A stretch of DNA of 64,000 nt from Escherichia coli (GTDB lineage: Bacteria > Pseudomonadota > Gammaproteobacteria > Enterobacterales > Enterobacteriaceae): NCBI RefSeq assembly GCF_030384885.1, contig NZ_CP128613.1; one strand, 5' to 3'. The notes below the pieces were generated by a model. It was not told the DNA's origin. It ran no database searches and saw only the letters and a program-made list of their open reading frames with translations. Position numbers and translations under genes: made by a program. Positions 3,331-22,768 of this stretch are shown here, piece after piece; position 1 is the stretch's first letter; each line of letters opens with the position of its first letter.

Positions 3331-3479
3331 TAAAGCGCAAGAATATCTTTAAATGAAAATGAATACCCTACCGATCCTTATGCATAACATTTCCTTTTAA
3401 TTGCAACTTTACTCGTCCTTCTGCTTTCAGTAGTGTGTCATCGCGCATTTCGAATCTTCTTTGCAAGGACTGGGTTTTC

Positions 3480-4379
3480 ATGTTTTCTGGGCTGTTAATC
3501 ATTCTGGTTCCCCTGATTGTGGGTTACCTCATTCCGCTTCGCCAAAAAGCTGCATTAAAGGTTATTAATCAGCTATTAAGCTGGATGGTTTACCTTATTC
3601 TCTTTTTTATGGGTATCAGTCTGGCGTTTCTCGATAACCTCGCCAGTAACCTGTTGGCGATTCTGCATTATTCCGCCGTCAGTATTACCGTTATTTTACT
3701 GTGTAATATTGCCGCCCTGATGTGGCTGGAGCGAGGCCTACCGTGGCGCAACCACCATCAGCAAGAAAAACTCCCGTCGCGTATTGCGATGGCGCTGGAG
3801 TCCCTCAAGCTCTGCGGTGTGGTGGTGATTGGCTTTGCTATTGGCCTTAGCGGATTAGGTTTCTTACAACACGCTACGGAAGCCAGCGAATACACGTTAA
3901 TTCTGCTACTTTTCCTCGTCGGTATTCAGTTGCGCAATAATGGCATGACCTTAAAGCAGATTGTCCTTAATCGCCGGGGAATGATTGTCGCCGTGGTGGT
4001 GGTTGCCAGTTCATTAATTGGTGGTTTAATTAACGCCTTTATTCTTGATCTTCCCATCAATACCGCGCTGGCAATGGCCTCCGGTTTCGGCTGGTATTCT
4101 CTTTCCGGTATTTTATTGACCGAATCTTTTGGTCCGGTAATCGGGAGCGCGGCGTTTTTTAATGATTTGGCCCGTGAGCTGATTGCTATTATGTTGATCC
4201 CTGGGCTGATTCGCCGTAGCCGCTCGACTGCACTGGGCTTATGCGGTGCGACGTCGATGGATTTCACCCTGCCCGTTCTTCAACGTACTGGCGGGCTGGA
4301 TATGGTCCCGGCGGCGATTGTTCACGGTTTTATTCTTAGCCTGTTAGTGCCGATCCTCATCGCCTTTTTCTCTGCATAA
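3480..4379 (+). CDS. lysO: L-lysine exporter LysO/YbjE (299 aa)
   Basis: Translation from internal ATG MFSGLLIILVPLIVGYLIPL; multi-pass membrane protein. Confidence 0.9.
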   Translation: MFSGLLIILVPLIVGYLIPLRQKAALKVINQLLSWMVYLILFFMGISLAFLDNLASNLLAILHYSAVSITVILLCNIAALMWLERGLPWRNHHQQEKLPSRIAMALESLKLCGVVVIGFAIGLSGLGFLQHATEASEYTLILLLFLVGIQLRNNGMTLKQIVLNRRGMIVAVVVVASSLIGGLINAFILDLPINTALAMASGFGWYSLSGILLTESFGPVIGSAAFFNDLARELIAIMLIPGLIRRSRSTALGLCGATSMDFTLPVLQRTGGLDMVPAAIVHGFILSLLVPILIAFFSA

Positions 4380-4412
4380 TACCTCTCTGGCGGTAGATCC
4401 CTGCCGCCAAAA

Positions 4413-4426
4413 TTGCGCTAAATCAA
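4413..4426 (+). promoter_or_regulatory. Candidate FNR box upstream of hcp
   Basis: TTGCG-CTAA-ATCAA matches the FNR consensus TTGAT-N4-ATCAA at 9/10 positions, about 100 bp upstream of the hcp ATG. Confidence 0.35.
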
Positions 4427-4522
4427 TCTCCCTTAAAGTTGCATGAAAAATCCCTTTTATCCCCGCGTTAAGCGTCTTAACCTTAAACATGTATATTAAA
4501 TATAACTTTAAAAGGTGTGATC

Positions 4523-6175
4523 ATGTTTTGTGTGCAATGTGAACAAACTATCCGTACTCCGGCAGGAAACGGCTGCTCATACGCGCAGGGGATGTGTGGT
4601 AAAACGGCGGAAACCTCTGACCTTCAGGATTTACTCATCGCGGCGCTGCAAGGGCTTTCGGCCTGGGCAGTAAAAGCGCGTGAATACGGCATCATCAACC
4701 ATGACGTTGACAGCTTCGCGCCGCGCGCATTTTTCTCAACCCTGACCAACGTTAATTTCGATTCTCCGCGTATTGTCGGCTACGCCCGTGAAGCAATTGC
4801 CCTGCGTGAGGCGCTGAAAGCACAGTGCCTGGCTGTAGATGCCAACGCCCGCGTCGATAACCCGATGGCTGACCTGCAACTGGTGAGTGACGATCTCGGC
4901 GAGCTGCAACGTCAGGCGGCGGAATTTACTCCCAATAAAGATAAAGCGGCGATTGGCGAAAACATTCTCGGCCTGCGTCTGCTCTGCCTGTATGGCCTGA
5001 AAGGTGCTGCCGCCTATATGGAACACGCGCACGTTCTCGGTCAATATGACAACGATATTTACGCCCAGTACCATAAAATCATGGCATGGCTGGGTACCTG
5101 GCCTGCCGATATGAACGCACTTCTCGAGTGCTCCATGGAAATCGGCCAGATGAACTTCAAAGTGATGAGCATTCTGGACGCAGGCGAAACCGGTAAATAC
5201 GGTCACCCGACGCCAACTCAGGTCAACGTCAAAGCGACGGCGGGTAAATGCATTCTGATTTCCGGTCACGATCTCAAAGATCTCTACAACTTGCTGGAAC
5301 AGACCGAAGGCACGGGCGTTAATGTCTACACTCACGGCGAAATGCTGCCTGCCCACGGCTACCCGGAGCTGCGTAAATTCAAGCATCTGGTCGGTAACTA
5401 CGGCAGCGGCTGGCAGAATCAGCAAGTAGAGTTCGCTCGCTTCCCTGGACCTATCGTGATGACCTCGAACTGCATCATCGACCCAACCGTAGGGGCTTAT
5501 GACGATCGTATCTGGACCCGCAGCATCGTTGGCTGGCCGGGTGTGCGTCATCTGGATGCTGATGATTTCTCAGCAGTTATTGCCCAGGCACAACAAATGG
5601 CGGGCTTCCCGTACAGCGAAATTCCGCACCTGATCACCGTGGGCTTTGGTCGTCAGACGCTGCTTGGCGCGGCGGATACGCTGATTGATCTGGTGAGCCG
5701 TGAAAAACTGCGTCATATCTTCCTGCTCGGTGGCTGTGACGGCGCACGCGGCGAGCGCCACTACTTCACCGATTTCGCCACCAGCGTGCCAGATGACTGC
5801 CTGATCCTGACTCTCGCCTGCGGTAAATATCGCTTTAACAAACTTGAGTTCGGCGATATCGAAGGTCTGCCGCGTCTGGTAGATGCTGGTCAATGTAACG
5901 ATGCTTACTCAGCGATTATTCTGGCTGTCACTTTGGCAGAAAAACTGGGCTGCGGTGTCAACGATCTGCCGTTGTCGCTGGTACTCTCCTGGTTCGAACA
6001 AAAAGCGATTGTTATTCTGCTGACGCTGCTTTCTTTGGGCGTGAAAAATATCGTTACCGGCCCGACTGCACCTGGCTTCCTGACGCCAGACCTGCTGGCG
6101 GTACTGAACGAGAAATTCGGCCTGCGTTCTATCACCACTGTTGAAGAAGACATGAAGCAACTGTTGAGCGCGTAA
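4523..6175 (+). CDS. hcp: Hybrid-cluster protein (hydroxylamine reductase / NO reductase), 550 aa
   Basis: Translation [28 protein letters not shown] with the N-terminal Cys cluster; ATG at 4523. Confidence 0.95.
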
Positions 6176-6186
6176 GGAGTTTGTCG

Positions 6187-7155
6187 ATGACGATGCCAAC
6201 CAATCAATGCCCGTGGCGGATGCAGGTTCATCACATTACGCAAGAAACGCCGGATGTGTGGACGATTTCCCTGATTTGCCACGATTACTACCCGTATCGC
6301 GCCGGGCAATATGCGCTGGTCAGCGTGCGTAACTCAGCGGAAACGCTGCGTGCTTACACCATTTCCTCCACGCCAGGCGTGAGTGAATACATCACTCTGA
6401 CCGTGCGGCGGATTGATGACGGTGTCGGTTCCCAGTGGCTGACCCGCGATGTAAAACGCGGTGACTACCTCTGGCTTTCGGACGCGATGGGGGAATTTAC
6501 CTGCGACGATAAAGCAGAAGATAAATTCCTGTTGCTGGCGGCCGGCTGCGGTGTCACACCGATTATGTCGATGCGTCGCTGGCTGGCGAAAAATCGCCCG
6601 CAGGCTGATGTGCAGGTGATCTACAACGTGCGTACGCCGCAGGATGTTATTTTCGCCGATGAATGGCGTGACTATCCGGTGACACTGGTGGCGGAAAATA
6701 ACGTTACCGAGGGTTTCGTTGCCGGACGTCTGACACGTGAACTGCTGACAAGCGTTCCTGATTTAGCCTCTCGTACTGTGATGACCTGTGGCCCGGCTCC
6801 GTATATGGATTGGGTAGAGCAGGAAGTGAAAGCGCTCGGCGTGACGCGTTTCTTTAAAGAGAAGTTCTTTACGCCAGTGGCGGAAGCAGCAACCAGCGGT
6901 CTGAAATTCACCAAACTGCAACCGGCGCAAGAATTTTACGCACCTGTTGGCACCACACTGCTGGAGGCTTTGGAAAGCAACAAAGTTCCGGTTGTCGCCG
7001 CCTGCCGTGCAGGTGTTTGCGGCTGCTGTAAGACGAAAGTAGTTTCCGGTGAATATACGGTGAGCAGCACGATGACGCTGACCGACGCCGAAATCGCAGA
7101 AGGTTATGTACTGGCCTGCTCCTGCCATCCGCAGGGGGATTTGGTTCTCGCATAA
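6187..7155 (+). CDS. hcr: NADH oxidoreductase for Hcp (322 aa)
   Basis: Translation MTMPTNQCPWRMQVHH...; C-terminal 2Fe-2S ferredoxin motif CRAGVCGCCKT; immediately downstream of hcp. Confidence 0.95.
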   Translation: MTMPTNQCPWRMQVHHITQETPDVWTISLICHDYYPYRAGQYALVSVRNSAETLRAYTISSTPGVSEYITLTVRRIDDGVGSQWLTRDVKRGDYLWLSDAMGEFTCDDKAEDKFLLLAAGCGVTPIMSMRRWLAKNRPQADVQVIYNVRTPQDVIFADEWRDYPVTLVAENNVTEGFVAGRLTRELLTSVPDLASRTVMTCGPAPYMDWVEQEVKALGVTRFFKEKFFTPVAEAATSGLKFTKLQPAQEFYAPVGTTLLEALESNKVPVVAACRAGVCGCCKTKVVSGEYTVSSTMTLTDAEIAEGYVLACSCHPQGDLVLA

Positions 7156-22279: not shown

Positions 22280-22768
22280 TTATTGCAACTGGAAGAACCG
22301 CCGACTGGTCGAGGGAACGAACAGTAGCAACAGGATGAGCATATCCGGCAACTTCTGCAGCATCAGGCTATGGAAGATTTCACGTTTTGATTCACCGGGA
22401 ATGCTGAACAGCTCCGGATAACCATACCCCAGCGAAGCCGCCCACAAATAACTGGCGGCCGTGATTTGTGTCAACAGATACAGCCAGCGCGCCCAGCGAC
22501 GCCCTTTCACCAGTGAAAACGCACACCAGATCTCAATGAAAACCAGCACCAGGCTGCTTAAAAAGACCAGTGTTAAACTCCAGGTTTGTACGCTGCGATG
22601 AATGAACTCGCCAATACCGCGCACGCCCAGCGTATTGAAAATCATCAGCACGTCGAGGCCACGGATCATAATAATGGCGAGCGCCGCCACCTGCACCAGC
22701 GCAGGCACATTCAGACGAGCATGAGATGAAGATGTTTTCTTAAAAAATCCCAACGTTTCGTCTTCCAT
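22280..22768 (-). CDS. ybjO: Inner membrane protein YbjO (162 aa)
   Basis: Translation MEDETLGFFKKTSSSHARLNVPALVQVAALAIIMIRGLDVLMIFN. Confidence 0.85.
   Translation of the reverse strand: MEDETLGFFKKTSSSHARLNVPALVQVAALAIIMIRGLDVLMIFNTLGVRGIGEFIHRSVQTWSLTLVFLSSLVLVFIEIWCAFSLVKGRRWARWLYLLTQITAASYLWAASLGYGYPELFSIPGESKREIFHSLMLQKLPDMLILLLLFVPSTSRRFFQLQ

Follow-up and report, generated by a model that had tools for sequence, protein, structure and literature searches.

Which signals control the hcp-hcr operon of this Escherichia coli strain, and through which sites in the short region upstream of hcp do they act? The window (the whole 64-kb stretch of DNA that was analyzed) contains a 143-bp intergenic region, 4380-4522, between lysO and hcp. 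An initial annotation made from sequence had pointed to two elements in this region, a near-consensus FNR box and an AT-rich partial palindrome reminiscent of NsrR operators, and had noted that hcp-hcr is anaerobically induced and responsive to nitrosative stress. We conclude, with a probability of about 0.93, that the region is the E. coli hcp-hcr promoter (Phcp) and that it integrates two or three signals. As a promoter element it is already known in detail.

The lysO-hcp intergenic region is base-for-base the same as that of K-12 MG1655 when aligned from the lysO stop codon through the hcp ATG. The sole nearby difference from K-12 is synonymous and falls in the last lysO codon (GCA vs GCG at 4376). 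Because the promoter sequence is identical, the mapping published for K-12 can be applied here base for base. Searching with 501 bp around the region gave a 100% match to E. coli strain 2013C-4282 and hits in 5424 of 5426 complete E. coli genomes, in which the annotation likewise reads lysO and then hcp; across the 143 bp, 4090 of these 5424 genomes are at least 99% identical. Open reading frames and family models give the gene order ybjD(-), aqpZ(+), lysO, hcp, hcr, poxB, which is the K-12 order in reversed orientation. The features of the region and the genes that flank it are collected in Table 1.

Table 1. Features of the hcp-hcr promoter region, with positions in the window and, where applicable, relative to the transcription start
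Feature	Position	Strand	Remarks
lysO (ybjE)	3435-4379	+	Open reading frame; named by annotation in matching E. coli genomes
lysO stop codon, TAA	4377-4379	+	Upstream edge of the regulatory region
Putative NarL/NarP-type 7-2-7 site, TACCTCT-CT-GGCGGTA = TACCTCTCTGGCGGTA	4380-4395		Centre 4387.5 = -104.5; directly after the lysO stop
GC-rich stem-loop, TGGCGGTAG-atcc-CTGCCGCCA	4388-4409	+	Inverted repeat between the lysO stop and the FNR box
FNR binding site, TTGCGCTAAATCAA	4413-4426		Centre 4419.5 = -72.5; class I activator position
Conserved A/T-rich stretch, FNR box to -35 region	4433-4450	+	TTG 4439-4441, AAA 4448-4450
Candidate -35-like element (poor), CTTTTAT	4454-4460	+	Conserved CTTTT; 1.1-1.8 bits
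Candidate -10 hexamer, TAACCT	4478-4483	+	TAnnCT across Enterobacterales; T, A and final T conserved
NsrR operator, 11-1-11, AACATGTATAT-T-AAATATAACTT = AACATGTATATTAAATATAACTT	4486-4508		-6 to +17
Transcription start, T	4492	+	Experimentally mapped (Rodionov 2005, Fig. S1); 31-nt leader
Shine-Dalgarno sequence, AAGGTG	4512-4517	+	Judged by its sequence and its distance from the ATG (4523)
hcp, hybrid cluster protein / hydroxylamine reductase	4523-6175	+	NCBIfam equivalog NF003658, 815 bits; hcp in matching genomes
hcr, NADH oxidoreductase of Hcp	6187-7155	+	Co-transcribed with hcp; NCBIfam NF007964, 640 bits; start (about 6187) placed from the profile alignment

Conservation of the region was assessed in a comparative set in which one genome per species was scanned for the conserved start of hcp (TGTGTGCAATGTGAACA), giving 120 loci. 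Both boxes are present at 92 Enterobacterales loci from about 35 genera (from Escherichia to Yersinia, Serratia, Pectobacterium, Providencia and Proteus), with a centre-to-centre spacing between the FNR and NsrR sites of 75.5-83.5 bp, mostly 77.5, and both are kept in 93 distinct Enterobacterales hcp upstream regions. Conservation profiles, whether aligned or ungapped and anchored on the FNR box, peak on these two boxes, with further peaks at the TTG and the A-run of the A/T-rich stretch, at CTTTT (4454-4458), and at TAnnCT. Among five aligned Escherichia variants (four from E. coli and one from E. albertii), no substitution affects the NsrR operator, the FNR box or the -10 hexamer. When 4200-4700 was scanned against Rfam, nothing matched at an E-value of 1 or less, which argues against a riboswitch or small RNA behind the conservation.

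The AT-rich segment quoted in the initial annotation, AAACATGTATATTAAATATAAC, is a partial palindrome located at 4485-4506, exactly where it had been placed. It had been described as lying just upstream of the ribosome binding site, which is only part of the picture: the operator overlaps the transcription start, as expected for a repressor. Of the 11 positions in each operator arm, 7 are complementary to the other arm; 16 of the 22 positions agree with the NsrR consensus, and the dyad was also picked up by an inverted-repeat search. Counting consensus matches does not go beyond chance; GATGYATN5ATRCATC with up to three mismatches occurs 11 times in the window, against 10.4 expected. A weight matrix built from the 33 non-hcp sites of Rodionov 2005 gives CATGTATATTAAATATAAC (4488-4506) a score of 21.15 bits, rank 1 in the 64 kb, with a runner-up at 9.5 bits, and this score was reached in none of 100 random 64-kb sequences and in none of 20000 composition-matched intergenic shuffles.

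Published work places NsrR at the same position. For hcp, the NsrR site predicted by Rodionov 2005 is cATGtATaTTAAATatAaC, and with an alignment of enterobacterial hcp upstream regions that study predicted exactly the FNR and NsrR boxes described here. In strain CFT073, the NsrR ChIP-seq data of Mehta 2015 show a 12-fold enriched peak between hcp and ybjE. Its summit, 22 nt ahead of the hcp start codon, corresponds to window position 4501, within the operator. The 23-mer reported there, AAGTTATATTTAATATACATGTT, is the reverse complement of 4486-4508 and was the second-best 11-1-11 site in the genome (ln P -23.87). The same study reported that hcp was up 43.7-fold in nitrate-grown cultures, and noted that ChIP-chip in K-12 had likewise shown binding of NsrR at hcp. 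Thus the prediction of Rodionov 2005, the ChIP-seq summit of Mehta 2015, and the first rank by weight matrix all identify the AT-rich palindrome as the NsrR operator that the initial annotation had suspected.

The palindrome might instead be the target of a different regulator (the paralogue IscR, OxyR, or a nucleoid protein), or might simply be AT-rich promoter and leader DNA. The region is indeed AT-rich, hcp is said to be induced in an OxyR-dependent manner under nitrosative conditions, and the best intergenic match to the OxyR consensus (11 of 20 positions) overlaps the palindrome. However, 0.3% of all window positions match the OxyR consensus at least as well, and consensus scans of 4330-4522 for CRP, IHF and OxyR gave background-level matches only. 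Against such a reading stand the distance of the NsrR score from the next in the window, the outcome of the shuffles, and the NsrR ChIP-seq summit inside the palindrome. In addition, conservation between genera traces the pattern of NsrR half-sites. We consider it very unlikely that the palindrome serves something other than NsrR, and treat it as the NsrR operator in what follows.

A further NsrR-like 11-mer, AAGTTGCATGA, occupies 4436-4446, in the A/T-rich stretch upstream of the -35 region, and Mehta 2015 lists AAGTTGCATTA as what might be a third NsrR 11-mer for hcp. The GCAT core is not conserved across genera, so the NsrR reading of this 11-mer is doubtful, and we did not adopt it as a second conserved NsrR target. 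Position 4445 is polymorphic within E. coli: it is G here and in K-12, and T in CFT073-like strains and in most other genera. This polymorphism alters the 11-mer of Mehta 2015, AAGTTGCAT(G/T)A.

The mapped transcription start agrees with the position of -72.5 that Table 1 of Myers 2013 gives for the FNR site. The start lies 9 nt past the -10 hexamer, which is slightly unusual, and it could be off by 1-2 nt. We assign the -35-like element and the -10 hexamer from their position and conservation; the two would be separated by 17-18 bp. Upstream of them, the A/T-rich stretch carries 2.0 bits of information at T4439 and 1.8 bits at A4448-4449, and we infer that it is a docking region for the C-terminal domains of the RNA polymerase alpha subunits. 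A generic scan of 4300-4600 for sigma-70 promoters and terminators called nothing. The lack of a sigma-70 call is attributable to the weak core, as expected for a promoter that depends on an activator.

Among 36 genus-level groups, TAnnCT begins 57.5-58.5 bp from the centre of the FNR box at all loci listed but one, a Dickeya locus with 59.5. The NsrR site follows the -10 hexamer after a gap of anywhere between 3 and 10 bp in all Enterobacterales loci. A rigid FNR to -10 spacing together with a floating NsrR gap is what would be expected if the geometry of the activator is rigid and the repressor has only to cover the start.

If the operon were transcribed mainly by an alternative sigma factor, sigma-E, from a different start, the geometry of -72.5 and +1 would be irrelevant. 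Table 1 of Myers 2013 shows no sigma-70 ChIP peak at hcp and labels the promoter a 'sigma-E site'. However, the main text of Rhodius 2006, the source cited for this label, contains neither hcp nor ybjW. Moreover, sigma-E-like and sigma-54-like promoters in 4330-4522 do not rise above background (best matches 7/11 and 8/11, respectively), and the conserved TAnnCT is placed at a nearly fixed distance from the FNR box. The missing sigma-70 signal could be accounted for by NsrR repression in the nitrite-free medium of Myers 2013, which we infer to be the simpler explanation. We therefore regard transcription mainly from a sigma-E promoter as extremely unlikely and retain the sigma-70 promoter that starts at T4492.

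Two observations concern the core promoter itself. A sigma-70-like pair, TTAACC-N18-TATAAC, is found at 4477-4506, within the NsrR operator; it matches at 9 of 12 positions, which puts it in the top 0.03% of window positions, and its predicted start would adjoin the Shine-Dalgarno sequence. Secondary hcp promoters have reportedly been described, and this pair may be one of them. In E. coli O169:H41 strain 2014EL-1345-2, the IS4-like element IS421 lies inside the hcp promoter at the equivalent of window position ~4463/4464. The insertion is between the FNR box and -35 region on one side and the -10 hexamer and NsrR operator on the other, and should uncouple hcp from activation by FNR.

Of the 10 defined positions of TTGAT-N4-ATCAA, the FNR box has 8; its right half is perfect and its left half reads TTGCG. 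We scored it with an independent weight matrix built from 61 ChIP-bound sites in part of Table S6 of Myers 2013, from which the hcp and aqpZ sites were excluded to guard against circularity. With this matrix the box scores 12.7 bits and ranks fourth in the 64 kb. The chance rate at this score is ~1.06 per 64 kb, or roughly 0.002 per 143-bp intergenic region, and the score is significant for a promoter of 143 bp. Among ChIP-bound FNR sites the box falls at the 8th percentile, the weak end. The placement of the site at 4413-4426 was exact to the base, and calling it 'near-consensus' is slightly generous.

The entries of Myers 2013 for K-12 agree with this placement. The site predicted there at an FNR ChIP-seq peak, TTGATTTAGCGCAA, is the reverse complement of the FNR box, and its PatSer score of 13.11 (ln p -11.6) exceeds the cut-off of that study. 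Table 1 of Myers 2013 classes hcp-hcr as 'Activated' and cites Filenko 2005 for the site at -72.5, and FNR-dependent expression of hcp has been found in published experiments on the identical sequence. The centre of the box and the mapped start give the same -72.5, which fits the class I positions near -61.5, -71.5 or -82.5, all on one face of the helix. We conclude that the FNR box is a weak, asymmetric site at a class I position.

It is extremely unlikely that the FNR box is a functionless chance match and that anaerobic control of hcp comes from elsewhere. The window holds 55 matches to TTGATNNNNATCAA with up to two mismatches, where 34 are expected (a count not beyond chance), and the score is among the lowest 8% of bound sites. 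Yet the box coincides with an FNR ChIP-seq peak on the identical K-12 sequence, shows the strongest conservation of any block here across 93 distinct Enterobacterales sequences (2.0 bits per position for ATCAA and 2.0 for TT), and keeps its nearly fixed spacing to the -10 hexamer.

The left half of the FNR box is unusual in that its departure from consensus is itself conserved. The non-consensus bases at 4416-4418 (TTGCGC rather than TTGATN) carry 0.8-1.3 bits in most Enterobacterales, and TTGCG is conserved across Enterobacteriaceae, Yersiniaceae and Pectobacteriaceae. This pattern may reflect selection to keep the site weak, or else a second constraint on the same bases.

The Aeromonas loci of the comparative set form a natural control. 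At all 13 the FNR box is of consensus type: 11 loci share TTGATCTGCATCAA (18.9 bits), L025 and L039 carry other consensus variants, and the scores span 18.9-19.6 bits overall. The box sits at a distance from the hcp ATG similar to that in E. coli (-106.5 to -108.5 vs -103.5). No NsrR operator was found at any of the 13; the best scores by the NsrR matrix were at most 12.6 bits and overlapped the FNR box. In Aeromonas, then, a strong FNR box goes with no NsrR gating.

The FNR matrix also draws attention to other sites in the window. Its best match, TTGACGCACATCAA at 57283-57296 (16.15 bits), lies in the divergent gap between the open reading frames 56557-57291(-) and 57323-58249(+), and Myers 2013 lists its reverse complement as the ybiY/fsaA site at an FNR ChIP-seq peak. 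The second-ranking match, TTGCCCTAAATCAA at 2148-2161 (13.6 bits), lies in the divergent ybjD/aqpZ intergenic region and is one base off the hcp FNR box. Its reverse complement, TTGATTTAGGGCAA, is at an FNR ChIP-seq peak in Myers 2013, where its target and effect are given as unknown. The flanks of this site and of the hcp box are unrelated, and we rejected the idea that one is a duplication of the other. A third site, GTGATTTGTGTCAA at 22461-22474, scores higher than the hcp box (13.3 bits) and falls inside a 162-aa minus-strand open reading frame. It does not appear in the first of the two parts of Table S6 of Myers 2013, and is probably a chance or unbound site.

A third input to Phcp could come from the nitrate- and nitrite-responsive regulators NarL and NarP. 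The initial annotation had proposed scanning for NarL/NarP, and the 7-2-7 site directly after the lysO stop is absent from it. The site fits TACYYMT-NN-AKRRGTA at 12 of 14 positions, a level of agreement that does not stand out from chance, with 8 such matches in the window against 2.7 expected. NarL/NarP is reportedly placed at -104.5 at hcp, in agreement with the geometry here, and we regard the assignment as putative. The site is conserved only in Enterobacteriaceae sensu stricto, where the left heptamer keeps TACYnC and the conservation of the right heptamer is confounded by a stem-loop that shares its bases. Induction of Phcp has been cited as NarL/NarP-dependent (Rodionov 2005). According to MotifAdjuster, the NarL sites annotated for hcp make up a 7-2-7' pair; hcp is not among the entries of the MotifAdjuster supplements.

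The stem-loop in question has a 9-bp stem with a predicted stability of -16.5 kcal/mol (RNAfold), and its left arm is also the right NarL/NarP heptamer. It is found in essentially all Enterobacteriaceae sensu stricto. Over 44 distinct Enterobacteriaceae sequences, 98.2% of cells in the stem are paired, and the loop varies in both sequence and length. Stem pair 18-29 is U-G, U-A or C-G and never C-A, and the loop-closing pair 20-27 co-varies (G-C, A-U, C-G). We did not accept the structure as a canonical intrinsic terminator; it has the GC-rich stem, and directly after the stem there is AAAATTG in place of a T-run, in keeping with the empty terminator scan. It is probably a hairpin at the 3' end of lysO, and it may be an insulator element. 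In more distant Enterobacterales (Rahnella and some Serratia and Dickeya), unrelated GC hairpins often lie upstream of the FNR box, and two Aeromonas loci (L025 and L114) have, ahead of the FNR box, a GC hairpin with a T-run behind it. An element at the 3' end of the upstream gene thus seems to be common ahead of Phcp.

Two aspects of the region might go beyond what has been described, and the novelty of both would be modest: the dual use of the stem-loop as a NarL heptamer, and the conserved weak half-site of FNR. We suggest, tentatively and with more doubt than confidence, that the stem-loop and the NarL heptamer share their bases functionally and that the FNR site is deliberately weak where NsrR gates the promoter. 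If so, the same DNA would act both as a 3'-end or insulator element of lysO and as the target of a response regulator. Likewise, there would be selection for a weak FNR site wherever NsrR gating is present, and Aeromonas, without the operator, has the consensus box.

On the most probable account, which is the accepted one, Phcp works as follows. In the absence of oxygen, [4Fe-4S]-FNR binds its asymmetric box at -72.5 and, from this class I position, activates a weak sigma-70 promoter (candidate -35-like element CTTTTAT, candidate -10 TAACCT, start T4492), presumably by recruiting the alpha C-terminal domains to the A/T-rich stretch before the -35 region. NsrR, an Rrf2-family Fe-S repressor, would block initiation from its operator across the start, presumably by steric hindrance. 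Nitric oxide formed from nitrite or nitrate would damage the NsrR cluster, NsrR would leave the operator, and the FNR-activated promoter could fire. Phospho-NarL or phospho-NarP at the 7-2-7 site could add a further nitrate/nitrite input. Both boxes are statistically significant and deeply conserved, with a nearly fixed spacing between the FNR box and the -10 hexamer. Published experiments on the identical sequence have found occupancy by FNR and NsrR, FNR-dependent expression, repression by NsrR, and strong up-regulation in nitrate-grown cultures.

The locus is also useful as a calibration. Both operators had been placed correctly, to the base, from raw sequence, and both agree with the mapped elements of the hcp promoter. 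Consensus matching alone cannot justify calls of this kind; weight matrices, promoter geometry, conservation or experimental data are needed as well.

Phcp is a textbook-level example of combined control by oxygen (FNR), nitric oxide (NsrR), and nitrate/nitrite (NarL/NarP), and the fusion Phcp::lacZ is a routine and standard NsrR-dependent reporter of cytoplasmic NO. The K-12 version, the insert of the reporter plasmid pNF383, has the same sequence, with the FNR box at -72.5, the NsrR operator, and the mapped start. There is no promoter difference between the two, and the region described here is the same element in another strain. Among NsrR targets, the operators of ytfE and hmp (AAGATGCATTT-N-AAATGCATCTT) have the same inverted-repeat layout and the same repressor, and all are bound by NsrR in ChIP-seq. 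The hcp operator is more degenerate than these, with GTAT/ATAA instead of GCAT/ATGC, and its 21 bits are near the bottom of the range of the training sites, 19.6-31.3 bits. Among promoters that respond to both FNR and NarL/NarP, those of nirB, nrfA and napF combine an FNR box with an upstream 7-2-7 site, as Phcp would with its putative one. There, FNR binds either at -41.5, the class II position, or at -64.5. Phcp differs from them in having FNR at -72.5 and a dedicated NO-sensing repressor over the transcription start.
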